Shown: positions 301-14,165 of the stretch, in pieces
How the letters are laid out: the number at the start of each line of letters is the position of its first letter
Numbering within the stretch: the first letter of the stretch is position 1
Source of the DNA: an uncultured Methanosarcinales archaeon
GTDB lineage: Archaea > Nanobdellota > Nanobdellia > Woesearchaeales > DATGWN01
Assembly: GCA_964557345.1 (NCBI GenBank)
Contig: CAZKZU010000001.1
Coordinates: forward strand, 555 to 64,554
Direction: 5' to 3'
Length of the DNA: 64,000 nt
Made by a program: the position numbers and the translations under genes
The notes under the pieces: model-generated
The model's database searches: none
Told to the model about the DNA's origin: nothing
The model's input: the letters and a program-made list of their open reading frames with translations, nothing else

Positions 301-783
301 ATGAGATCAGTAAATTTGATATATTGTCTAAAAGATAATTTAGTTCTATTAGGATTAAAAAAACGAGGCTTTGGTGTTAATAAACTTAATGGTTATGGCG
401 GAAAACCTGATGCAAATGAGACTATTGAACAAGCTGCTGTTAGAGAATTAAAGGAAGAAGCTGGTGTTACTTCTGATGTTTCTAATTATGAGAAAGTTGC
501 TGAAATAGATTTTATTTTTGCTGATGTTCCTGTTGAGAAGAATTGGAATCAAACAGTTCACGTATATTTTTTAAGAAAATGGGTTGGTGAGCCAGTTGAG
601 ACTGAAGAAATGAAACCTGTTTGGGCAGATATTAAACAGCTTCCTTTTGATAAAATGTGGCTTGATGATAAGTATTGGTTGTCTGATGCAATAGCTGGTA
701 AAAAAATAAAAGCTGAATTTGTATTTGGTAAATCTGGTGCTGAAATTATTGAATTTAAGATAAAATATGTAAATGGGTTTTAA
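301..783 (+). CDS. Nudix hydrolase (MutT/NTP pyrophosphohydrolase family)
   Basis: Perfect Nudix box GGKPDANETIEQAAVRELKEEAGV (Gx5Ex7REUxEExGU). Confidence 0.8.
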   Translation: MRSVNLIYCLKDNLVLLGLKKRGFGVNKLNGYGGKPDANETIEQAAVRELKEEAGVTSDVSNYEKVAEIDFIFADVPVEKNWNQTVHVYFLRKWVGEPVETEEMKPVWADIKQLPFDKMWLDDKYWLSDAIAGKKIKAEFVFGKSGAEIIEFKIKYVNGF

Positions 784-927
784 TTTTGGATTAATTTTTA
801 TTATCTATATTATTGGCATTTGTATTTTTACTATTTTTCCACAAGTTTCTTTTTTGGTTTCTACTCTAACGAAAAGCTTTTAAGGAAAGAATATAGCGTA
901 TGTGTTAAGGGGTTTGTTGGATAATAT

Positions 928-1605
928 ATGACTAAAAAAGATTTGAAAAAAAGGTTGAATGAGGATTTGAAAACAGAGTCTGTTGGAAAAGAAAATCATT
1001 CTAGTTATAGTTTAGTTATGTTTGCTCAAATTATTGGGGTTGTCTTAATATTCCTTGTAATTGTTTTATTATTGGTGTTTGTAAATAATGTTTCTGTTCC
1101 TACTTTTGCAATTGATGGAAGAACTATTGGTAATGCTGATGCACCAGTTGAAGTTATTGTCTGGAGTGATTTTCAATGTCCTTTCTGTTCACAATTTGCA
1201 ACCGATATTATGCCAAGTCTCGAGAAAGACTATGTTAGTACTGGTAAAGTTAAGATTTCATATAAATATTTTTTAGGACATACTGATTCAAAGCGAGCTG
1301 CAATGGCTGCAGAATGTGCTAATGAACAAGGAAAGTTTTGGGAATATCATGATTTAGTGTATAAGAATTCAGATATTAGTGAGAAGGCGCTTAAAAGTTA
1401 TGCAATTTCTTTAAGTTTAAATTCTTCTCAATTTAATGATTGTTATGGTAGTGAAAAATATGGTCGAGCAATTGAAAAGGAATTTATGGAAGGAATAAAT
1501 ATTGGTGTTAAAGGAACTCCTTCGGTTTTTATTAATGGAACTTTTATTGAAGGATTACAAAGTTATTCTAGTTATAAGATGGCGATTGATTTTGCATTGA
1601 AATAA
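928..1605 (+). CDS. Membrane-anchored DsbA-like thiol:disulfide oxidoreductase (thioredoxin fold)
   Basis: N-terminal TM helix, CPFC active-site motif, DsbA-like length and layout. Confidence 0.65.
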   Translation: MTKKDLKKRLNEDLKTESVGKENHSSYSLVMFAQIIGVVLIFLVIVLLLVFVNNVSVPTFAIDGRTIGNADAPVEVIVWSDFQCPFCSQFATDIMPSLEKDYVSTGKVKISYKYFLGHTDSKRAAMAAECANEQGKFWEYHDLVYKNSDISEKALKSYAISLSLNSSQFNDCYGSEKYGRAIEKEFMEGINIGVKGTPSVFINGTFIEGLQSYSSYKMAIDFALK

Positions 1606-1848
1606 TTTTTTTGTTTAAAATAGTTGAATGTATTGTTGTAGTATAATGAAATTATTGTTGCAGTTATTCTTTAGTGAATATTTTGTATCTTTTTTTGCTT
1701 ATTTTTACTCATGGTAAATATTTGGTTTATAAATTATCTTTCTTGAATGTAATTTTTGAAAACTAAAAGTTATAAAATTCACTTCAAATAATATAGTATC
1801 TAAAAGCTATAACTTTAAAAACATAAGGTTACAGTCAATTTAATCGCA

Positions 1849-1896
1849 ATACAACTTGTTGTAGTTTAACCTAACTGATAACACAACGGGTTGTGT
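1849..1896 (+). promoter_or_regulatory. Two palindromic boxes, ACAACttGTTGT (1851-1862) and ACACAACggGTTGTGT (1881-1896), with centres 32 bp apart, upstream of nrdD; NrdR-box-like operator
   Basis: Perfect palindromes read from the sequence. The 16 bp box with ACAC..GTGT ends and ~32 bp spacing resembles bacterial tandem NrdR boxes. A GGAGAGGTG Shine-Dalgarno-like motif lies at 1911-1919. Confidence 0.35.
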
Positions 1897-1924
1897 TTGT
1901 GCTTTTTTATGGAGAGGTGCTAGA

Positions 1925-4084
1925 ATGGAAGGAGTAGACGAATCATACGTTATAAGACGAGTTAAAAAAAGAGACGGATCTATTGTTCTTTTTGATGAAA
2001 AAAGAATTGCAGAAGCAATCTTTAAAGCAGCAAAAGCAGTAGGTGGCGACGATTATGATCTTTCAAAAAAATTAGCACGAAAAGTTACAAACACTCTAGA
2101 TATATTTTTCTATTCCGGTTCTATTCCTCACGTTGAAGCAATCCAAGATTTAATTGAAAAAACTTTAGTTGAAGAAGGTCATGCGAAAACTGTTAAGGCA
2201 TATATTCTTTATCGAAAACAAAGAACTGAACTTAGAGATTCTAAATCTTTTGCATTTGATGTTGAGAAAACTATGGATGGTTATTTAATGCAGTCGGACT
2301 GGAGAGTTAAAGAAAATAGTAATGTTGATTTTTCTCATTCTGGACTTTTACTTCACGTAGCAGGAACAGTTATTGCAAGATATACGCTTGATCGAATTTA
2401 TCCTCCAGAAGTTGCAAATGCGCATAAGGAAGGAGATTTTCATATTCATGATTTAAGTATGGGTATTGCAGGTTATTGTGCAGGTTGGAGTCTTAGACAA
2501 TTACTTGATGAGGGATTTAATGGTGTTCCAGGTAAAACTGATTCTGTTCCGCCAAGACATTTAGATTCTGCATGTTGGCAAATAATTAATTTTATTGGTA
2601 CTTTACAAAACGAATGGGCTGGTGCACAAGCGTTCTCGAGTTTTGATACTTATATGTCTCCTTTTGTAAAAAAAGATAATATGGAGTATAAAAAAGTAAA
2701 ACAATTAATGCAAGCATTTGTATTCAATATGAATATTCCTTCTAGATGGGGTGGACAAACTCCTTTTTCGAACATTACTTTAGATTGGATTGTTCCTGAA
2801 GATTTAAAAAATAAAAAAGCAACTGTTGGTGGTGAAAGACAAACTTTTACATACGGAGATTGTCAAAAAGAAATGGATATGATTAATAGAGCATTTATGG
2901 AAGTTATGACTGAAGGAGATGCTAAGGGCAGAATTTTTACTTTTCCAATTCCAACATATAATGTAACTAAAGATTTTAATTGGGATTCTGAGAATGCAAA
3001 ATTGTTATTCGACATGACTGCAAAATACGGTATTCCTTATTTTCAAAATTTTGTTAATTCAGAATTAAATCCTGGTGATGTAAGAAGTATGTGTTGTAGA
3101 CTTCAAATGAATTTAAATGAATTAAAGGCAAGAGGTGGAGGACTTTTTGGTTCTGCTGAAATGACTGGATCTCTTGGCGTTGTTACAATTAATCTTCCTC
3201 GAATAGGATATTTATCTAATAGTAAAGATGAGTTTTTTGCACGACTTGGAAAATTAATGGAAGTTGCAAAAGAATCTCTTGAAATTAAAAGAAAAATCGT
3301 TTCATTGAATATGGAAAGAGGTCTAATGCCTTATTCTAAAAGATATTTAGGAACTTTAAATAATCATTTCAATACCATTGGTTTAGTTGGTATGAATGAA
3401 GCTATAATGAATTTTATGGGTCCAGAATATAATATTACTACAGTTGATGGAAAAGCATTTGCTGAAGAAGTTTTAGATTTTATGAGAGTAAAATTAACTA
3501 AATTCCAAGAAGAAACTGGAAATATGTATAATTTAGAAGCAACACCTGCCGAAGGTACTAGTTATAGACTTGCAAAAATAGATAAAGAAAAATACAGCGA
3601 TATTATAACTCAAGGAATTGATGCGCCTTATTATACAAATAGTACTCAACTTCCAGTAGGATATACTGATGATGTATTTGAAGCACTTGATTTGCAAGAT
3701 TCACTTCAGATTAAATATACTGGAGGAACTGTTCTTCACGGATTTATCGGCGAGAGTCTTCAAACTGGAGATACTATTAAAAAATTAGTTAAAAGAATCG
3801 CGGAAAATTATAGATTGCCTTATTTTACAATAACTCCGACTTTTAGTATTTGTAAAGAGCATGGTTATGTTGCAGGAAAACATTTTGAATGTCCAACTTG
3901 TAAAGGCGCTTGTGAAGTTTTCAGTAGAGTTGTAGGATATTTAAGACCCGTACAAAATTGGAATAATGGTAAAAGAGAAGAGTTTAAAGAACGAGTTCCG
4001 TTTTCAGTATGTAAGTCAATTGAAAGTAAACATGGAACTCTTGGAAAACCTAAGACTCTTGCTCAACAAATAACTACTTATTGA
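1925..4084 (+). CDS. nrdD: Anaerobic ribonucleoside-triphosphate reductase (class III RNR), with N-terminal ATP-cone
   Basis: ATP-cone VIRRVKKRDGSIV..FDEKRI; C-terminal Zn-ribbon CPTCKGAC and glycyl-radical motif RVVGYLRP; 719 aa. Confidence 0.9.
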   Translation: MEGVDESYVIRRVKKRDGSIVLFDEKRIAEAIFKAAKAVGGDDYDLSKKLARKVTNTLDIFFYSGSIPHVEAIQDLIEKTLVEEGHAKTVKAYILYRKQRTELRDSKSFAFDVEKTMDGYLMQSDWRVKENSNVDFSHSGLLLHVAGTVIARYTLDRIYPPEVANAHKEGDFHIHDLSMGIAGYCAGWSLRQLLDEGFNGVPGKTDSVPPRHLDSACWQIINFIGTLQNEWAGAQAFSSFDTYMSPFVKKDNMEYKKVKQLMQAFVFNMNIPSRWGGQTPFSNITLDWIVPEDLKNKKATVGGERQTFTYGDCQKEMDMINRAFMEVMTEGDAKGRIFTFPIPTYNVTKDFNWDSENAKLLFDMTAKYGIPYFQNFVNSELNPGDVRSMCCRLQMNLNELKARGGGLFGSAEMTGSLGVVTINLPRIGYLSNSKDEFFARLGKLMEVAKESLEIKRKIVSLNMERGLMPYSKRYLGTLNNHFNTIGLVGMNEAIMNFMGPEYNITTVDGKAFAEEVLDFMRVKLTKFQEETGNMYNLEATPAEGTSYRLAKIDKEKYSDIITQGIDAPYYTNSTQLPVGYTDDVFEALDLQDSLQIKYTGGTVLHGFIGESLQTGDTIKKLVKRIAENYRLPYFTITPTFSICKEHGYVAGKHFECPTCKGACEVFSRVVGYLRPVQNWNNGKREEFKERVPFSVCKSIESKHGTLGKPKTLAQQITTY

Positions 4085-4347
4085 TTATAATAAGCACCTC
4101 TCTATTTTTTATTTTTTTATTTTTAAAAAAATTATATTTTAATTTATGATCCTCGATGATGATAAGTTTCGATTAAATAAAAAGTAGCATCTGTCAAAAC
4201 TTTTATACGTTTTGCTAAGGTTCTGCGTTCCCGGATGGAGCATCCCCTCGCAACGAACTCGCAGTGTGGAATTATGAGTTTTGACCTTTTGGGATGCAAC
4301 TTTTTATTGTACAATTAATTTATTATTTATTTAGGAAGGTATTCCCT

Positions 4348-4578
4348 ATGAAAGCATTATTGTTTACAACTCCAACTTGTATTAAATGTAAGAAAGTAAA
4401 AGATTTTCTTGCTAAGCAAAATAAATTTTCTGTTGAATTAGTTGATGCGTCTACTCCTTCTGGTCTTGAGCTTGCTAAAAAGTATGATGTGTTTGGTGTT
4501 CCCACTGTTGTTTTTTTTGATGGCGATACTTTGTTAGGTGTTGCAACTGATATTGACGAGGTAGAACAATATTTATGA
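4348..4578 (+). CDS. Small glutaredoxin/NrdH-like redoxin (CxxC)
   Basis: TPTCIKCKKVKDFL thioredoxin-fold CxxC motif, ~76 aa. AGGAAGGT Shine-Dalgarno-like motif 8 nt upstream. The ORF-track start at 4294 is probably an over-extension. Stop overlaps the nrdG start (ATGA). Confidence 0.55.
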   Translation: MKALLFTTPTCIKCKKVKDFLAKQNKFSVELVDASTPSGLELAKKYDVFGVPTVVFFDGDTLLGVATDIDEVEQYL

Positions 4579-5345
4579 TTCTGAAAAACTTTGGGTCTGC
4601 ATCATGTAATGATTCTGAAAAGTTAAATGCTTTTTCTGATACTTCAAAAATATTTCCTATAAAAGGATTTCAAGCGACATCTCTTATAGATTACCCTGGA
4701 AATATTTGTGCAGTTATTTTTTTAGCTGGATGTAATTTTAGATGTGGCTTTTGTCACAATAAAGATTTAGTTTTTAATTCTAGTAATTTACAACTTCATA
4801 ACGAGGAAGAAATATTAAGTTTGCTTTCTAAACGTTCTAAGTTGATTGATGGGGTTTGTATTACTGGAGGAGAACCAACACTCTATCCTTACTTATATGA
4901 TTTTATTGTCAAGATAAAAAAAATAGGACTGAAAGTTAAGCTTGATACTAATGGGACTAATACTTTTCTTTTATCTCAGTTGATTTCTGAAAGATTGGTG
5001 GATTATGTTGCTATGGATATTAAGCAATGTAAGCAAAAATATGATTTAATTTGTGGCACTAAAGTAGATATGTCTCAAGTAATTGGTTCTGTAGAATTAT
5101 TGAAAATAAGTTATATTGATTATGAATTTAGGACGACGTTTGTACCTGAGTTAATAAGTTGGGAAGATATAGTTGAAATTTCTAAATGGTTAAATGGTGC
5201 AAAAAGATATGTTTTGCAACAATTTGTTCCTATGTATACTCTTATTAATCCAAAATTGACCAAAACTATTTCTGAAGCTGATTTGAAAATGATTTCTGAG
5301 AGAGTAAAGCCTTGCTTTGGAACAGTTGAAGTTAGAGGACATTAA
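4575..5345 (+). CDS. nrdG: Anaerobic RNR activating enzyme (radical SAM)
   Basis: CNFRCGFCHN (Cx3Cx2C) and GGEPT motifs. Translationally coupled to the upstream redoxin gene, downstream of nrdD. Confidence 0.75.
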   Translation: MILKNFGSASCNDSEKLNAFSDTSKIFPIKGFQATSLIDYPGNICAVIFLAGCNFRCGFCHNKDLVFNSSNLQLHNEEEILSLLSKRSKLIDGVCITGGEPTLYPYLYDFIVKIKKIGLKVKLDTNGTNTFLLSQLISERLVDYVAMDIKQCKQKYDLICGTKVDMSQVIGSVELLKISYIDYEFRTTFVPELISWEDIVEISKWLNGAKRYVLQQFVPMYTLINPKLTKTISEADLKMISERVKPCFGTVEVRGH

Positions 5346-8257
5346 TATTCTTTTATGCCTAATATATCTCCTAAAGTGCCTTTAATTTTTGCCTTAGTCA
5401 ATTTTGCATATTCTAATATCTCAGAAGTATTTGCACCTTTTCCACTCATCCCATAGAAAGTATTTTCTCCTAATAAAACATATGACCAAATACAATCCAT
5501 TCTATGTTCGCTAATCAATTCATTTATTTTATCAATCCAATCGATAGTCGCCAAACGTTTCTGCTGAACATTTTTATTATTCAAATCTTTTTCTGCCTTA
5601 GTTTCAACCAAATAGATCTTATCTTTTATTCTAACTAAAAAATCAGGAAAATAGTGCGCTAATAACCCATCATCTCTAATGTAAATAATATTCGCAAAAT
5701 CATAATAGTGTTCATTAATCTTCATAAATGCTTTCACTTGGGAATCTGCGTCTATAAATTCAACAAACGCCTTTTCAAACCCGCCTTTATTTGAAGGATA
5801 TGCAATTTTAGGATATATAGTCTTGGCAACATCAAGTGCATAAGTTTCTCTAATTTTAATTTCATTTATTTCTGAAAATGCTCTTTTAATTATCTTTGCA
5901 TCAATTACTTTAAGACTATTTTGCAAATCATATATACATTGACTTACATTTTTGACAATATGATTTATTATTTTTTCTTGAGTTAAAAGTAAAACCTTCC
6001 AATTATTATTTTTAAGTGGTTCAAATTCCTGTCCAAAAAGCTTATATCTTATATATTCATCAACTAAACTTGCAACCAATGCCGAATTAATCTGCATTAT
6101 CGGATACTTTTGCTCTTTATTTTTTCCTATTTTAATTGGTATAAAAGATACTGCATTAACTATTTTTTGAATAAAAGAATTATAACTTTTTGCTGTAAAA
6201 ATATCAGAAGTTACAGTATATTCCCCATATTTAGTTTTTACCGTCAATTCTTCTCCATAAAAAGTATCGCCATCTTTCAAAACTAAAGGAGTTAAATCAT
6301 CTAGAGGGATAGGAAATTTTTCTAACTTTTCAGAAGAAAGAGATATTGACGAGAAATGTTCTTCCTTATCATGGATTATTATAGGCCAAGAAAAATCGTA
6401 ATCTACAAAGTTTTCTTTTAATGAAATGGAAATAATATCTCCGACAACATGATTTTTAGTAGGCATTTCTTTAGTAATCGCAACAGCACCACTTAATTCA
6501 TTATCATAAAACTGAATAAAAGCAGGATGTTCTATAATACTCAATATATCCATATAATTGTCTGGCTCTTCCTTTCGCACAAGTAATTTATTTCTAATTT
6601 CTTTTTTTGCATCTAAATACTGTGGTTCCCTCCACATTAATCTTAATCCTCTTCCTATAGTCTGTTCTAAAAGAATAAAAGAACTGCTAGATCTTAAAGG
6701 AACAATAACGCAAATATTGCTTACATCAAAACCTTCTCGAAGCATTAAAACAGAAATAATAATTTTAGGCTTTGAATGTTTATCTATACTAAATAATTTC
6801 TGTTTAAGAGAACTCCATTCATCATCAGAAATTTCTCCTTTTTTATTAGAATGTACTTCAATTAATTCATCCTCACTATATCCTTCTTGCTTCAAGAATG
6901 CTGACACATAAGAAACAACTTTTGTGTCTTCACACATAACTAAAAGTTTGGGGTACTTTGTGGGATCTAATGATGTAAATCCTTCTTCAAGAATTCGTAA
7001 TTTAGAAATTCCAGCTCGGAGCATAATTCTTTGACCATCAGATAATCCAAGTATGGTATTTCCTTCTCTTTCAGACTTAAAATCAAGCGGAAGTGCTGCA
7101 AGTTCTTTTCGTTTATCAATTGCAACAGTCTTGACTAATCCTAACTTAATTGCAGTAGGTAATTCAAAATTAGTAATTATATGAGGAAAAAAATGTTTTG
7201 TTCTCTGCTGACCAGAACCTGTAACTGAATACGGAGTCGCTGAAAAATCAATTTGCAAAAATTTATTCTGCTTTTTTTCTGCAATCAAATCAATTGCTTT
7301 TTGCCATTTCTTTTCAAAAGTATCGTCTGATTTTTTAAACTCACCTAAATGATGAGCTTCATCGTTAAAAACAACTAAATCAGAAAGATTTGCTAAATAT
7401 TCAATTTCTTTTCCTCTAAAATGTTGGTTATCCAATTCTTCAAGTGAATGACCTGCAGATATGCCAGGAGTAATAGGAAGCATTTGCTTCACAGTTTTTT
7501 CAGGACTATCTAAAGGAGTTTCAACATCTTCTTCCTCCTCGCTTCCAGACAATAAATGCCAATTAGTAATTGCGATTAACCCCTCTCCAGTTACTTTTTT
7601 CCCGATTTCATCTTTTGTTGAAACGCTAGACTGAATAAACCCGAACATTTCTTCTTTATATGCTTGTGGAAGAAATAAATTCTCAAACTTTTTAAAATCA
7701 GACTCTTCAAAATTTCGTGTACCATCAATGTTTTGCTTTCCCAAATATGCATCAAGCAATCTTTCATAAACAATAAGTCCTGGTGCGATTAATAAAAAGT
7801 TTTTTGAAAATCTTCCAGACATAGACTCTTCATACTTTGCATTTAAATATTGCCAAATAAGAATGGCAGATAAAACCCAAGTTTTACCAGTTCCCGTAGC
7901 CATTTTAATGCAATATTTAGATAATTCATATTTTTCTTTTTTCAAATCAATCAAATCCAATCCTGATAACAATTCGGGATAAATAGATTTGTAAATATCA
8001 GTCACAGTTTTGATTTTCAATATTTCATGAATATAAATAACATTAAGAATTGCTTGCCATTGTCCCTCATGGAAATTAGCATAACGCAAATCTCCAAATG
8101 AACCACTAGGATCCCAAAATCGCAATAAATCTCTAGTAATGGGAGACACTTTTTCCAAAAAGTCTCCTTTCTCATATTCTTTATTTACTTTTTCAGTTAT
8201 AGCTTTCGCTAACTTTAAAGGAATATCCCCAGTTCCGAGATTTTTTGCTTGGACCAT
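5342..8257 (-). CDS. res: Type III restriction enzyme Res subunit (SF2 helicase + nuclease)
   Basis: Walker A MATGTGKTW, DEAH-type FNDEAHHLG, 971 aa. Co-directional and immediately downstream of the mod gene. Confidence 0.85.
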   Translation of the reverse strand: MVQAKNLGTGDIPLKLAKAITEKVNKEYEKGDFLEKVSPITRDLLRFWDPSGSFGDLRYANFHEGQWQAILNVIYIHEILKIKTVTDIYKSIYPELLSGLDLIDLKKEKYELSKYCIKMATGTGKTWVLSAILIWQYLNAKYEESMSGRFSKNFLLIAPGLIVYERLLDAYLGKQNIDGTRNFEESDFKKFENLFLPQAYKEEMFGFIQSSVSTKDEIGKKVTGEGLIAITNWHLLSGSEEEEDVETPLDSPEKTVKQMLPITPGISAGHSLEELDNQHFRGKEIEYLANLSDLVVFNDEAHHLGEFKKSDDTFEKKWQKAIDLIAEKKQNKFLQIDFSATPYSVTGSGQQRTKHFFPHIITNFELPTAIKLGLVKTVAIDKRKELAALPLDFKSEREGNTILGLSDGQRIMLRAGISKLRILEEGFTSLDPTKYPKLLVMCEDTKVVSYVSAFLKQEGYSEDELIEVHSNKKGEISDDEWSSLKQKLFSIDKHSKPKIIISVLMLREGFDVSNICVIVPLRSSSSFILLEQTIGRGLRLMWREPQYLDAKKEIRNKLLVRKEEPDNYMDILSIIEHPAFIQFYDNELSGAVAITKEMPTKNHVVGDIISISLKENFVDYDFSWPIIIHDKEEHFSSISLSSEKLEKFPIPLDDLTPLVLKDGDTFYGEELTVKTKYGEYTVTSDIFTAKSYNSFIQKIVNAVSFIPIKIGKNKEQKYPIMQINSALVASLVDEYIRYKLFGQEFEPLKNNNWKVLLLTQEKIINHIVKNVSQCIYDLQNSLKVIDAKIIKRAFSEINEIKIRETYALDVAKTIYPKIAYPSNKGGFEKAFVEFIDADSQVKAFMKINEHYYDFANIIYIRDDGLLAHYFPDFLVRIKDKIYLVETKAEKDLNNKNVQQKRLATIDWIDKINELISEHRMDCIWSYVLLGENTFYGMSGKGANTSEILEYAKLTKAKIKGTLGDILGIKEY

Positions 8258-8277
8258 AGTAACTTGTTTAAAATTAT

Positions 8278-8772
8278 TTAGTGTTTATCATATTTTTTTG
8301 TTTTGATTAATTTTAACTTTTCAATATACTCTAAAGGCAAATTACATTCTTTAGCACCTTCAATTATAGTCGTCATGTAATTTACATAGGGTAAAAACAT
8401 ATCTTCAGTCATCAAACTAAAGTCATTGCTATAAACTCTGTAGGTTATTGCAGAATATGTTGTACCTGCCATATTTGTAACTAATATGCTCTCTCTTTTA
8501 TATTTTGGAAATTGTTCTTGACTAGTGCCCTCCCAATAATCTAATTTTAAAATATCATCATCAGTTACTTCAAATATAACACCCCACAACTTATCGTTCA
8601 TACTACTATCAAAACTAGCAACGCCACCTTTTTTTTTCAAAGAAAATTTTGGAAAAATTAATTTCATATTATTGATATAGACGATATCTAACAATTGCAA
8701 AGTCTTATTCTTAAGCCTTTCCCTTATTTGAGATAAATTCATATTTGAACCATATGCAAAATAATATTTCAT
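8278..8772 (-). CDS. Gamma-glutamyl cyclotransferase / AIG2-like fold protein embedded in the R-M operon
   Basis: N-terminal YFAYGSNM hallmark and LDYWEG motif (GGCT/GGACT/AIG2 family). Lies 40 bp after the mod stop and 20 bp before the res start, on the same strand. Confidence 0.55.
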   Translation of the reverse strand: MKYYFAYGSNMNLSQIRERLKNKTLQLLDIVYINNMKLIFPKFSLKKKGGVASFDSSMNDKLWGVIFEVTDDDILKLDYWEGTSQEQFPKYKRESILVTNMAGTTYSAITYRVYSNDFSLMTEDMFLPYVNYMTTIIEGAKECNLPLEYIEKLKLIKTKKYDKH

Positions 8773-8812
8773 TTTCCCTCAATAAAAACATAACTTTCTA
8801 TAATTAATATAA

Positions 8813-10870
8813 TCATATATCCTTCACCGTAACACTTTCAAATCCGAATACATCAACAGCTTTAATACAAATTTTTCTTCGACCTGACTTTTTTGGAACT
8901 ATTAATTTTGCTGATTTAATCACCCTAAACTCATCACCATCATTATCTGTGTTTTGACGATAATCCTGCCATTTACTTCTAAAAACTTCTCCATCATAAT
9001 CTGGATCAATACTCCAATATTCGATCAAAGATAAAGGATCTTCCTGAATTACTTTATCCAGTTTTTCTTTATTTTCTTTATCCAACGGTAATGCATCAGG
9101 AGAAAGAAGAACGTAATTTTCCAGTTCAATTTCAATTTCATCTTCGTCATCACTATATTTTTTTGTTTTAACTGGTTTAACAGTTAAATATTGTAAAGAA
9201 GAAAACTTAACCTTTTCTGATTTAATTAAGTCTTGATAACTTGTTTTTGATTTTAATTTATCAAGCAAATCAGGAGGAATTACTAAAACTTCAAGTTTAT
9301 CATCGTTTAAACTACTTAAAATTTTACCTATATTAACATCAAAATTCCATCCAAGAACAATAACTTTATCCCAACCGCCCATAAAACTAGCTCTCAATTC
9401 TTGAGCTTTTTTAAGCGTACTATATCCAGTTAATTTAGATGGAGAATCAACAATAACTAAAATCTTACTAAGTTTAATATATCCAAAATTATTTGGAATC
9501 CCTTCCTGTTGAGGAAAAGGCAAAGCGCCGAAAAGATTTATCACAACTTGAGATAAATCTCCAATAGTCTTAAACTCTGATTTCTCAAACTGTTCTTTTT
9601 GATAATCTCCTATTGATTGATATAAAAAAGGCTTCGCCTCTTGATCAATTAATCGCTTTCTCTGAATCATGCATGCAGGTTTTCCTAATTCACACATAAT
9701 CCAATTTCTTTTTAATTCTTCAGAAGCTATACCTGTTGTTCCAGAGCCTGCAAAAAAGTCTGCAACAATATCATTTTCTCTTGATGCCATTTCAATAATC
9801 CTTTTCAAAAAATTAGGAGATTTGGCAGTTAAAAAATCACTATTATAATCATAAGCAATAACATCATCCCATAGTGTATCGCAAATAGTATATTCCTTCG
9901 GAGCTAAGAAATATTCGGGCATACCGCTACTACCTAACCTAATAAATTCTAAATCAGAATGTTCTAAGGCATATTCATCCAAGGATAAATCATCACGATA
10001 TTTTTTTAAATATATATTATAATTTTCAACTGCTTTTTCAGCTCTATCTTTATTCCACATCCACTGACCTGTAGTAATTTTTACACCTAATAACTCATAT
10101 CTTAATGTAGGCCTATCTGCTGGTTGTTTGAATCCATGCCAATACCCTTTTCGAAAAAATTCTTTAGTAGGGGCATTAAATTTAACAGAAGAAGTTTTCG
10201 CGTATACATAAACTGAATCCCCAAATAAATTAAGAGAATTTAATTTGTCGAATTGTTTGGTTAGATTCTTATTAATTCTTCTGGTCACTATCTCGTTTCT
10301 AAAATTCTCTTTTCCAAATATATCATCCATAATAACTTTAACATAATGTCCAACATGCCAATCAATATGTACATAAATCGAACCTTGTTCTGATAATAAC
10401 TCTCTCATTAAAATTAATCGAGGTATCATCATTTGCAAATATGAAGCTGTTCCATCTTTCCAGGTATCAGAATAAGCGAATTGCTCTATTACTGTTGGCT
10501 TTTGTTCAATATCTGTTCCTGGAAGATGAATTTTAGTTCTATAATCCGCTTTAGAATCAAATGGTGGATCTATGTAAATCAAATTAATTTTTCCGCGCAT
10601 GGACGACATTCCTGTTTGAGGATCGCCTGCAAGTAATGCTTGCATCGCAAGTAGATTATCTCCATAAATCATTCTGTTAAGCCAATCCTTTTTTCCTAAT
10701 TCTTTAACACTCTGACCAAAGAAACCGCCTTTTGCTTTTGTTGGAAGAACTAATTCATTTGTCTGCAAAGTAACACGATTAGGTTTAGAAAGCCCATCTA
10801 AAATCTTTTGAGCTTCCTTTTTACCTTTTTCAATTATTTTTGGTAATTCTTCTATTAATGAGGCAGGCAT
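8813..10870 (-). CDS. mod: Type III R-M Mod subunit (beta-class N6-adenine DNA methyltransferase)
   Basis: Motif IV IYIDPPFDS precedes motif I DFFAGSGTTG; 685 aa; followed co-directionally by res. Confidence 0.85.
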   Translation of the reverse strand: MPASLIEELPKIIEKGKKEAQKILDGLSKPNRVTLQTNELVLPTKAKGGFFGQSVKELGKKDWLNRMIYGDNLLAMQALLAGDPQTGMSSMRGKINLIYIDPPFDSKADYRTKIHLPGTDIEQKPTVIEQFAYSDTWKDGTASYLQMMIPRLILMRELLSEQGSIYVHIDWHVGHYVKVIMDDIFGKENFRNEIVTRRINKNLTKQFDKLNSLNLFGDSVYVYAKTSSVKFNAPTKEFFRKGYWHGFKQPADRPTLRYELLGVKITTGQWMWNKDRAEKAVENYNIYLKKYRDDLSLDEYALEHSDLEFIRLGSSGMPEYFLAPKEYTICDTLWDDVIAYDYNSDFLTAKSPNFLKRIIEMASRENDIVADFFAGSGTTGIASEELKRNWIMCELGKPACMIQRKRLIDQEAKPFLYQSIGDYQKEQFEKSEFKTIGDLSQVVINLFGALPFPQQEGIPNNFGYIKLSKILVIVDSPSKLTGYSTLKKAQELRASFMGGWDKVIVLGWNFDVNIGKILSSLNDDKLEVLVIPPDLLDKLKSKTSYQDLIKSEKVKFSSLQYLTVKPVKTKKYSDDEDEIEIELENYVLLSPDALPLDKENKEKLDKVIQEDPLSLIEYWSIDPDYDGEVFRSKWQDYRQNTDNDGDEFRVIKSAKLIVPKKSGRRKICIKAVDVFGFESVTVKDI

Positions 10871-10968
10871 AGGTTTACAAAAGTTACTTATCGTTTAAAT
10901 ATGTTACGCTAATTGATACTCTATATGTTATTCTAGTTTATATGTAGATTATTACGCTATATGTATTT

Positions 10969-11223
10969 ATGAAGGAAAATCTATCTTTGTTAAGAAGTAA
11001 GCTAAAAAGGGATGTTTTGATGCTTTTAGAGGATAAAGAGCTTTCTCCAGTGATGATTGCTAAGCAATTGAAAAAACCAAGACCTAGTATAAGTAGGATA
11101 ATATTAGAATTAAAGGATAAGGATTATGTTTATTGTATTGATGAAAAGAAAGATAGGTGGCGATTCTATAAAGCAACTCCAAAGGGTAAGAAAACTTTAG
11201 ATGATATAAAAAAGTATGTTTGA
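10969..11223 (+). CDS. Small winged-HTH transcriptional regulator, divergent from mod
   Basis: 84 aa with a wHTH-like SPVMIAKQLKKPRPSISRIILELKDKDYV segment. Divergent promoter region shared with the R-M operon. Confidence 0.4.
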   Translation: MKENLSLLRSKLKRDVLMLLEDKELSPVMIAKQLKKPRPSISRIILELKDKDYVYCIDEKKDRWRFYKATPKGKKTLDDIKKYV

Positions 11224-11253: not shown

Positions 11254-11808
11254 TTAAATAATGTCTTCAATTACTTTTACAAATGCTTTAGCTCTTTTTA
11301 GTGATGTTTTTGCTTTTTCTTTTTCTGCATTTTTTCCAAGTTCGTATGTGAATATTTTTCTTTTATTCATTTCTGCTGAGAAATCATCAATCATTTCAAA
11401 TACTCTGTTTTCTGAAATTTGCATGAGTTCTTCAGCTTCATTTATTGCTTGTTTATATTCTTCAATAAAGTGTTTTTTTAGTAATTTATTTTGATTGATA
11501 AAATAATATATTATTGCGTGATATGTGAAGCGATGGATACCGTATTCAGACTTTATTTTGTGATTATATTTTGCAAGAAGTGCTGTAGCTGCAAAGAACA
11601 TGGAGTAATAAGCACTGTTAATTACCCAAAGATACGTATTTATTTTTTCAGTTTCAGATATGTCAAAAAGCCTATTTGATACAATTATTGATTGTTTTGC
11701 TTTATCTAGAAAAAAATGATCTGTTCCTTCAATTGATTTAGTAATAATTCCTTCGGAAATGGCTCTTTTAATTATTTTATCGCTTTCGTTTAATTTATTA
11801 GTATCCAT
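11254..11808 (-). CDS. HEPN-like all-alpha protein, partner of the upstream nucleotidyltransferase
   Basis: All-helical 184 aa. Overlaps the upstream NTase gene by 11 nt. Paralog of 55755..56249. No canonical Rx4-6H motif. Confidence 0.35.
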   Translation of the reverse strand: MDTNKLNESDKIIKRAISEGIITKSIEGTDHFFLDKAKQSIIVSNRLFDISETEKINTYLWVINSAYYSMFFAATALLAKYNHKIKSEYGIHRFTYHAIIYYFINQNKLLKKHFIEEYKQAINEAEELMQISENRVFEMIDDFSAEMNKRKIFTYELGKNAEKEKAKTSLKRAKAFVKVIEDII

Positions 11809-12391
11809 TTTTTGTCTTTAATGTATTAATAAATTGCTCGTATCCTGTGATTACATAATGATTTTTTTCAATTTCGTTCCAAACGTTTATTGTTTTAGAT
11901 AGCCACATTTCTTTTAAATCCAGTTTTTTTATTATATTTATATCTGCATTATATAGTGAAAGCTGGTTTTTGATAACTCTTTCAAATTTATCTCTATTTA
12001 TGTCGTCATTAATTATAAATAGTAAATCCATATCTGAATTTTTTGTCGAGGCTCCTTTCGCATAGCTTCCGAATAAAATGCATGCAAAATTATATTCTAC
12101 GTTTAGAAGAGTTTCTTGGATGTTTTTTAAAGTTTTGTCTTTTTTTTCCGAAAATCTTTCCATTTCAACTGTTACATATTCGAGATTACATTTTTTGAAA
12201 TTAAGCTTTATAACTTTAGCAGAGCCTATTTTATTTGTGTTTATTAGCTCTTTTTTTTCTAATCCCTTTATTATTTTATGTGTTTGAGGATATTTTTGGT
12301 TTAATTTTTCGGATATTTTTTTGATAGATATATCTGTGGTGAAATCCTCGAACAATATTTTCAATATTTGGTATTCGTTTTTCTTTAACAT
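11798..12391 (-). CDS. wHTH-fused minimal nucleotidyltransferase (MNT/Pol-beta superfamily)
   Basis: GSYAKGASTKNSDMDLLFI (GS..D.D NTase motif) and an N-terminal wHTH-like segment. Paralog of 55187..55768. Confidence 0.6.
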   Translation of the reverse strand: MLKKNEYQILKILFEDFTTDISIKKISEKLNQKYPQTHKIIKGLEKKELINTNKIGSAKVIKLNFKKCNLEYVTVEMERFSEKKDKTLKNIQETLLNVEYNFACILFGSYAKGASTKNSDMDLLFIINDDINRDKFERVIKNQLSLYNADINIIKKLDLKEMWLSKTINVWNEIEKNHYVITGYEQFINTLKTKNGY

Positions 12392-13491: not shown

Positions 13492-13830
13492 ATGGAAATT
13501 TGGATAAAAGTAGATGATTTATGGGAAAAATTTAAAAATATGTGTTATATCAATGGATATAACATGAAAAAAGACATATTGCGATATCCTCGATTGGATA
13601 CAATTTTAATGGTTGAAAGTTTTATTCAGAAGAAAGATGGGATGTTTAAGAAAAGAAAACTCTGGGAAAGTCTTCCTAAGAAAATGATGTATCAGACTTT
13701 TTGTGTAATTATAGATTATTTAGTAGTTTCTCATAAAATTTCAATCGACAAAGAGGGGAAAATTGGGTGGATATATTATCCTAAAAGCAACAAAAATGTT
13801 AAGAAAGATAGTAGTTTGTTTTGGAAGTGA
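13492..13830 (+). CDS. Hypothetical protein, possible antitoxin partner of the downstream RelE-like gene
   Basis: 112 aa; overlaps the downstream gene by 10 nt; no recognisable motif. Confidence 0.2.
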   Translation: MEIWIKVDDLWEKFKNMCYINGYNMKKDILRYPRLDTILMVESFIQKKDGMFKKRKLWESLPKKMMYQTFCVIIDYLVVSHKISIDKEGKIGWIYYPKSNKNVKKDSSLFWK

Positions 13831-14165
13831 AAATGATTTTACCTTCTAAAGTAAGATTTTTAGATAAATCTTTACAAGATGCTTATTTTTCTTTACAAAG
13901 CGGATTTGATGATGAGAAAAAACTTTTTAAGAGTTTGAATAAAGCCTTTACTGAAATAGAAAAAAATGCTTTTTGTGGTATACAAGTACCAAAAAATCTA
14001 ATTCCTAAAAGATATATTAAGAATGATATTGTAAATATTTGGAAGTATAATCTTCCTAACGGTTGGAGATTATTATATTCTGTTGAAAATCAAAAGATAT
14101 GTGTTGTTTCAATAGTAATAGAATGGTTGGATCATAAGTCTTATGAGAGGAGGTTTAAATATTAG
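13821..14165 (+). CDS. RelE/ParE-family toxin-like protein
   Basis: C-terminal YNLPNGWRLLYSVENQKICVVSIVIEWLDHKSYE matches the RelE/ParE core pattern (W/YRl.Y.v......v.vl.i.H....Y). Confidence 0.4.
   Translation: MEVKMILPSKVRFLDKSLQDAYFSLQSGFDDEKKLFKSLNKAFTEIEKNAFCGIQVPKNLIPKRYIKNDIVNIWKYNLPNGWRLLYSVENQKICVVSIVIEWLDHKSYERRFKY

Follow-up and report, generated by a model that had tools for sequence, protein, structure and literature searches.

The 64,000-nucleotide (nt) stretch of contig CAZKZU010000001.1 analysed here (hereafter, the window), from an uncultured archaeon, carries a type III restriction–modification (R-M) cassette in which a gene of the gamma-glutamyl cyclotransferase (GGCT) family lies between the methyltransferase gene mod and the restriction gene res. 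The initial annotation described the three genes as co-directional with gaps of 40 and 20 nt, and the open reading frames (ORFs) were found at exactly the coordinates it gave, on the minus strand. Read from the mod side, the locus is composed as follows (aa, amino acids).

10871–10968, strand not given: intergenic region upstream of mod, shared with a divergent winged helix-turn-helix (wHTH) gene.

8813–10870, minus strand: mod, 685 aa; type III DNA methyltransferase, beta-class N6A/N4C.

8773–8812, minus strand: mod–GGCT spacer, 40 nt, AT-rich, TTATATTAATTATAG; GAGGG lies 5 nt 5′ of the ATG.

8278–8772, minus strand: GGCT gene, 164 aa, N-terminus MKYYFAYGSNM; gamma-glutamyl cyclotransferase of the human-GGCT-like AIG2_2 subfamily.

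8258–8277, minus strand: GGCT–res spacer, 20 nt.

5342–8257, minus strand: res, 971 aa; type III restriction subunit with superfamily 2 (SF2) helicase motifs and a C-terminal PD-(D/E)xK nuclease.

Three ORFs of 685, 164 and 971 codons in DNA of 29% GC, with the E-values reported below, far exceed what chance would produce. No terminator-like sites were found on the coding strand between mod, the GGCT gene and res, and judging from the sequence the three genes are most likely expressed from a single operon transcript, with the promoter likely located in the intergenic region 10871–10968. A scan for sigma-70 promoters yielded fewer sites than in shuffled sequence, the sigma-70 consensus being uninformative for a probable archaeon.

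Matches to Pfam and PADLOC, together with intact motifs, bear out the identities initially assigned to the three products. Mod matches Pfam N6_N4_Mtase (PF01555; 7e-32) and PADLOC MTase_III (9e-64), and its motifs IYIDPPFDS (DPPF at residue 101) and FFAGSGTTG (FAGSG at residue 373) follow each other in the beta-class order, IV then I. Res matches Pfam ResIII (1.4e-13) and PADLOC REase_III (5e-30), with weak matches to Helicase_C and to a C-terminal endonuclease; a pattern search identified the motifs NDEAHH, SATP, QTIGRGLR and, at the C-terminus, PDF...VETK, and the translation also reads MATGTGKTW. Its similarity to named families is only remote (BPTD_3080, 198 bits with a cut-off of 800; PRK15483, 30 bits with a cut-off of 564). 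The relatives of Res number more than 4000; the best 120 listed are 64–74% identical, most of them belonging to DPANN and Thermoplasmata archaea, and these archaea are where the family mainly occurs. No relatives of Res were found on viral contigs. The type III cassette looks complete and intact, and is predicted to be active.

The 164 aa protein matches Pfam AIG2_2 (8.5e-13, 49 bits, cut-off 27), Pfam GGACT (2.8e-7, 31.6 bits, cut-off 22.8), and phrog_2520, annotated as a gamma-glutamyl cyclotransferase (2.9e-10). Its structure was modelled from a 53-sequence alignment, with pLDDT 93.5 and pTM 0.88. The initial annotation had made its reading depend on a GGCT-like fold, and such a fold was indeed predicted: the best Foldseek matches are structures of human GGCT (3CRY, 2RBH, 2I5T; TM 0.85, E of the order of 1.5e-13), and those of YkqA, ChaC, and GGACT score well below them. 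Similarly, the match between the GGCT family profile and human GGCT extends from end to end and takes in the C-terminal helix (E 1.4e-39). The Y7-G8-S9-N10-M11 loop and E81 of the LDxxEG motif are invariant or nearly so in alignments A1–A3 and align with the human motifs; three tyrosines are also invariant or nearly so across the GGCT alignments, the active-site set including Y91, Y111, and Y132. Neither Pfam nor PADLOC indicated a second domain, that is, this is a single-domain GGCT, and no PADLOC model matches it. Taken together, the alignments and the model identify the protein as a genuine GGCT with intact predicted catalytic residues.

A scan with Res over one genome per species yielded 29 loci, and with the window included there are 27 readable mod–res junctions. 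In 21 of these 27 cassettes mod and res are joined directly, in agreement with the earlier claim that a mod–res pair is the norm for type III systems and an insertion is unusual; at the 20 direct junctions inspected at the sequence level, the mod stop codon abuts or overlaps the res ATG. The GGCT gene occupies the slot in three cassettes of distinct DPANN lineages, namely, in the window, in L014 (Micrarchaeota, 41.5% identity), and in L031 (Nanoarchaeota, 46%), so the insertion, whose occurrence in related loci the initial annotation had left to a survey, is not confined to the window, and among the readable cassettes the GGCT is the sole cargo found in more than one genome. Two other cassettes contain membrane proteins unrelated to GGCT, a hydrophobic 212 aa protein, apparently multi-pass, in L009 (Pacearchaeota, 5360–5998) and, in L010 (Iainarchaeum, 5525–6001), a protein of 158 aa whose N-terminus is hydrophobic, both described from a reading of their sequences and both with no match in Pfam or PADLOC. 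In one more cassette, L027 from a Saccharibacteria metagenome-assembled genome (MAG), a 592 aa Schlafen/AlbA_2 and HATPase_c_4 protein is followed by a 49%-identical Res (2826–7748), and mod is reduced to a short C-terminal remnant; this may be a rebuilt, methylase-less system. Both junctions are tightly stop/start-coupled in L009, L010, L014, and L031, the mod stop overlapping or abutting the GGCT ATG in the latter two, and the active site is retained in all three GGCTs embedded between mod and res. Since most cassettes lack the GGCT gene and other genes use the same position, the mod–res junction is a variable cargo slot and the GGCT is an optional cargo; the core of the restriction machinery does not include it.

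The central part of Mod (approximately residues 200–345 of the window protein) is unalignable in L006, L011, L019, and L023, and both ends are 66–89% identical. This divergence is consistent with swapped target-recognition domains, and hence with different specificities within one cassette family. The nrdD, nrdG, HEPN, MNT, and HAD genes flanking the cassette in the window were not found beside other cassettes; of the window flanks, the divergent wHTH gene alone recurs at a related cassette, its homologue in L009 having the same divergent position. We conclude that the cassette moves horizontally. As a separate observation, L007 and L008 have identical mod and res tblastn statistics and an identical junction sequence, and their contigs are binned as a Gammaproteobacteria and a Micrarchaeota MAG, respectively, in the same study, which points either to faulty binning or to a transfer in the very recent past.

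An exhaustive search identified 2,247 relatives of the window GGCT, only two representative clusters beyond the query reaching E 1e-30. The nearest ones (P0126, P0127, P0128, P0130, and P0133, 39–46% identical by BLAST) are standalone genes neighbouring ribosomal, tRNA-synthetase, S-layer, Fic or apparently rRNA genes. In a neighbour-joining (NJ) tree of the GGCTs, which is weak, the three embedded copies are not monophyletic and are interleaved with standalone ones, L014 pairing with the standalone P0126 (58%) and the window with P0127. The NJ tree of Res is star-like. A single ancestral insertion of the GGCT gene was considered and set aside, as the Res and GGCT trees are too weak for counting insertion events. 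Exchange of the gene via recombination across the conserved 3′ end of mod and 5′ end of res is plausible. Positions 7469–7490 of L115, right after the P0126 stop codon, read ATGGCACAAGCC / ATGGCACAAGCCAAT, which agrees at 12 positions with the first 16 bases of the conserved res start. The notion that L115 is a decayed cassette was rejected, as the upstream sequence contains no remnant of mod and a pattern search performed no better than chance; the likeness to the res start could be due to chance or could be a scar of a lost cassette.

The link of the wider GGCT family to defence emerged only when neighbouring genes were scanned with PADLOC. We considered 80 metagenome loci with GGCTs 24–38% identical to the window protein, called their ORFs by a simple script, scanned the neighbours against PADLOC and Pfam and cross-compared them by tblastn. 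None of these 80 loci has a Mod or Res of the window type. In nine of them (L038, L043, L049, L052, L057, L066, L067, L095, and L098) the GGCT gene is embedded in Hma/DUF499 systems; the GGCTs found in such defence contexts are 25–38% identical to the window protein. In L052 and L038, the HmaB methylase gene is followed by a gene for a protein that we call X and then by the GGCT gene, and in L057 X precedes GGCT; in L066, the order is X, GGCT, and the HmaC ATPase, and L067 is arranged likewise with an extra ORF before HmaC. The GGCT gene directly precedes hmaB in L043, L095, and L098, with gaps of 0–6 nt, and in L049 it is followed by a SMODS cyclase and a patatin phospholipase (a CBASS pair), and then by HmaB. 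Protein X (about 270 aa), conserved and placed between HmaB and GGCT in several of these loci, has no Pfam match, and its possible identity with the DUF3780 component of type-2 BR systems is not supported by Pfam. The CBASS pair of L049 (520–3678), lying between GGCT and HmaB, is in itself an example of one defence system nested inside another.

Other defence operons with the GGCT gene differ in their content. For example, in L071 a SNF2 helicase and a type IIG/DrmMI-like methylase (7e-111) are followed, 1 nt on, by GGCT; in L081 GGCT precedes MzaB, MzaC and a DUF4420 protein; in L093 the GGCT domain ends a 460 aa ORF approximately 0.9 kb upstream of a QatA-led operon. In L001 (Thermocrinis, 324–9000), a complete type I cas operon, comprising cas7, a Cas5d-family 720 aa protein, cas3, cas4, cas1, cas2, and cas6, is preceded at a distance of 18 nt by a tandem pair of GGCT-family genes (118 and 157 aa). 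L092, initially a candidate defence locus due to matches to GajB and a DRT helicase, encodes a UvrD-type helicase, and the pair of a UvrD helicase and PDDEXK_1 points to a repair locus of the AddAB type; it was not counted.

GGCT domains also occur in fusions. P0262 (L203, 1481–2923) combines a TIR domain of the CAP12/Pycsar type with a C-terminal GGCT, P0227 (L202, 1015–3825) combines DUF2357 and PD-(D/E)xK, a McrC-like nuclease module, with a C-terminal GGCT, and P0175 is a fusion of GGCT with DUF4145. From a reading of motifs, the ORF upstream of P0227 appears to be McrB-like AAA+ and the one upstream of P0262 HsdR-N-like; sequence searches of the PDB with these two upstream ORFs returned no match.

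All five annotated plasmid contexts inspected fall within regions of defence genes or mobile elements. In one, a beta-class DNA methylase, whose identity was checked, is followed by GGCT after 75 nt; in another, the GGCT is accompanied by three gene pairs, namely, AAA with an S8 peptidase, multiubiquitin with ThiF, and a nuclease with an ATPase. A third has a GGCT-family protein of 402 aa adjoining a DUF5677 gene, toxin–antitoxin systems, and an IS21 element, a fourth has one of 505 aa at 2.5 kb from Shedu genes, and the last holds a truncated GGCT copy near an ABC-three-component system. Relatives of the GGCT are present on 362 viral contigs, the phage copies being 25–34% identical to the window protein, and in some phages the GGCT gene is located next to an annotated amidoligase gene.

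We hold, with moderate confidence, that the GGCT is functionally linked to defence as an auxiliary enzyme. The initial annotation had allowed for either an accessory or a passenger, and the comparative evidence leans towards the former, leaving the matter unsettled. Our favoured explanation is as follows. An intact mobile type III cassette, in a low-GC genome that is probably of a DPANN-type archaeon, has had its mod–res junction, normally a coupled stop/start overlap, taken as a cargo slot; the cargo in the window is a GGCT with an intact active site, most likely expressed off the operon transcript and belonging to a family of small enzymes that have time and again joined anti-virus systems or become fused to their proteins. 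The enzyme would cleave a gamma-glutamyl-amine or gamma-glutamyl-peptide conjugate to 5-oxoproline and the free amine, a reaction proposed because it is established for the GGCT and GGACT enzymes. The conjugate could be a mark or metabolite of the kind predicted from invader-encoded gamma-glutamyl amidoligases, and its cleavage would support the defence system that the GGCT travels with; in the fusion proteins, the GGCT domain could act as a sensing or processing module.

Our confidence in any specific target of the enzyme is much lower than in the functional link to defence. Candidate conjugates might, for instance, be made by viral amidoligases or consist of gamma-glutamylated amino groups in hypermodified DNA of viruses, and the recurrent position of the GGCT gene beside DNA methyltransferase genes might reflect a link to methylation chemistry or to its cofactor. 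Still more generally, and only tentatively, human-type GGCTs could be a widespread unrecognised module of prokaryotic immunity acting on gamma-glutamyl-amine conjugates; if so, this would be a new metabolite or modification axis in the virus–host conflict.

Several observations weigh against a defence role. Twenty-one of the 27 related cassettes have no insert, the closest relatives of the window GGCT are standalone genes in ordinary neighbourhoods, and the window junctions are the loosest among the five insert-bearing cassettes, so that the GGCT gene here could have its own promoter in the spacer. Most of the 80 broader loci have no defence neighbour, and the enrichment in defence contexts is stated relative to no formal background control; only a few percent of random genes would be expected within two genes of a defence gene. 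The GGCTs embedded in Hma systems are 57–62% identical to the L052 copy, and the nine loci may represent one or two events; because these loci are related to one another, independent associations with defence number roughly seven to ten and not 20. Moreover, defence islands and mobile elements accumulate unrelated cargo. As to the chemistry, we know of no gamma-glutamyl mark on restriction enzymes or DNA, and phages carry GGCT together with amidoligase, so the GGCT need not oppose the amidoligase module.

The GGCT might instead be an ordinary metabolic enzyme of gamma-glutamyl peptide salvage with no role in defence, its gene occupying the only harmless insertion site of a two-gene operon and being passed on either together with the cassette or through recombination between cassettes at the conserved ends of mod and res. 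We consider this somewhat unlikely, yet it is a serious alternative and the one that fares best. It fits the rarity of the GGCT among the cassettes and the use of the same slot by unrelated genes, the ribosomal, tRNA-synthetase, S-layer or apparently rRNA neighbourhoods of its nearest standalone relatives, which speak for it most strongly, the non-monophyly of the R-M-embedded copies in the weak NJ tree, and the general tendency of defence islands and mobile elements to gather assorted genes; the composition of the gene is not clearly foreign either (GC 0.27 vs. 0.30–0.31). Against it stand the tight stop/start coupling at both junctions in L014 and L031 and the active site kept in all three embedded copies; moreover, a neutral gene would be unlikely to turn up repeatedly inside unrelated defence operons and in fusions with TIR and restriction-nuclease domains.

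The GGCT might also be a backup effector akin to PrrC, restrained by the type III enzyme and set free when a virus inhibits restriction, so that it would deplete an essential gamma-glutamyl metabolite and halt growth in an abortive infection. Effectors embedded in R-M loci have precedents, PrrC in EcoprrI (PMC12707154) and HEPN families (PMC3710099). The same slot elsewhere holds membrane proteins and a Schlafen-like ATPase, which are typical types of effectors, and there are TIR and nuclease effectors that carry a fused GGCT domain. Nevertheless, GGCT is no known toxin, its near relatives are standalone and unregulated, which argues against toxicity, and the 164 aa protein has no sensor or regulatory domain; nor is an abundant gamma-glutamyl metabolite known from DPANN-type archaea. 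We regard this explanation as improbable.

Least probable of all, and by our estimate very doubtful, is that any ORF would do as a spacer uncoupling the translation of mod and res, the resulting lower or later Res relative to Mod helping the cassette to establish in a new host: the abutting or overlapping codons at all 20 inspected direct junctions, the unrelated genes in the L009 and L010 slots and the importance of delayed Res translation for establishment of EcoP15I (PMC12707154) agree with it, but it leaves unexplained why GGCT was chosen three times, why its active site is conserved, and what brings it time and again into Hma, type IIG, McrBC-like, and TIR contexts.

The region around the cassette contains several further features, of which the nearest is the gene divergent from mod.

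10969–11223, plus strand: winged-helix regulator, divergent from mod; wHTH of the TrmB/MarR_2 type, just below the gathering scores.

This putative regulator may be the controller of the cassette, since its homologue is located in the same divergent position by the L009 cassette. Immediately upstream of the R-M cassette, overlapping ORFs on the minus strand (11254–12391) encode a HEPN protein (184 aa) and a nucleotidyltransferase of the MNT type (197 aa); the pair looks like a toxin–antitoxin-type module, and the region like a small defence cluster. On the other side, a class III anaerobic ribonucleotide reductase set (1925–5345, plus strand; nrdD, a thioredoxin-like gene, and the nrdG activase gene) is convergent with res, the nrdG and res ORFs overlapping by 4 nt at their 3′ ends (5342–5345). 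Farther on, two adjacent ORFs at 13492–14165 on the plus strand (112 and 114 aa, overlapping by 10 nt) resemble a toxin–antitoxin-style pair and are a candidate for one.

Type III systems are textbook two-gene units, and here the mod–res junction of one large archaeal family proves to be a cargo slot. If the link between GGCT and defence is functional, cleavage of gamma-glutamyl conjugates to 5-oxoproline, common to human GGCT and the plant AIG2 family, would be a chemistry added to immunity, and would provide a handle on the purpose of the phage amidoligase/GGCT modules. If the GGCT is a passenger only, the locus would be a record of R-M cassettes ferrying cargo between DPANN archaeal lineages.

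A full-text literature search for GGCT or AIG2 together with restriction or anti-phage defence found no paper proposing a defence role for this family. Members of the superfamily are known on mobile elements, and the window is similar in this respect to the phage and plasmid modules of amidoligase, class II amidotransferase, and GGCT (Iyer et al., 2009, as recounted in PMC11318856 and PMC5498523). The window GGCT does not belong to such a module, its neighbours being mod and res and, in the further flanks, wHTH, HEPN/MNT, and nrdD/nrdG. In the PYG1 island of P. yayanosii, a gamma-glutamylcyclotransferase gene is located beside those of a class II amidotransferase and an ADP-ribosyl glycohydrolase; the island also holds McrBC and AbiE genes, and its authors interpreted the former set as gamma-glutamyl-cycle metabolism (PMC5126054).

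The Hma/DUF499 BREX-related systems resemble the window in being operons of a methylase and a helicase or ATPase that accept extra genes (PMC12839542, PMC11232893), but their core is different, consisting of a DUF1156 methylase, a DUF499 ATPase, and a SNF2 helicase-nuclease. Published surveys of Hma and BREX list nuclease effectors as auxiliaries and are silent on GGCT (PMC12839542, PMC11232893), the 2026 survey centred on BREX/DUF499 (Hma) systems does not mention GGCT in its main text or six supplementary files, and the hma region is an insertion hotspot for defence genes according to the experimental paper on Hma.

PrrC of the type Ic system EcoprrI, like the window GGCT, is encoded amid the core genes of an R-M locus, and it is co-expressed with them (PMC12707154); unlike the GGCT, a small metabolic-type enzyme in a type III locus, it is an ABC-ATPase-HEPN toxin in a type I locus, triggered by Stp of phage T4. 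Thus, the window GGCT shares with PrrC the embedding, and has neither a toxic domain nor a regulatory NTPase or sensor. Human GGCT (C7orf24; 2PN7, 2RBH, 3CRY) has the same YGSN loop, the glutamate of LDxxEG, and the helix GAKExxLPxEY; the window protein differs from it in sequence (about 28% identity), in having a prokaryotic host, and in its location, a defence operon instead of a gamma-glutamyl cycle.

Finally, in the type III systems EcoP15I and EcoP1I, as in the window, mod is located upstream of res and encodes a beta-class Mod with a variable centre, and Res (about 970 aa here) has SF2 helicase motifs and a C-terminal PD-(D/E)xK; the differences are that these systems have no gene between mod and res and that the nearest named family of the window Res, BPTD_3080, is distant. 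The window cassette therefore has a Mod with DPPY/F ahead of FxGxG and a variable centre and a Res with SF2 motifs and PD-(D/E)xK, as type III systems do, and departs from their strict two-gene operon by the third gene between mod and res, which is a variant architecture and no ground for excluding the cassette from type III.

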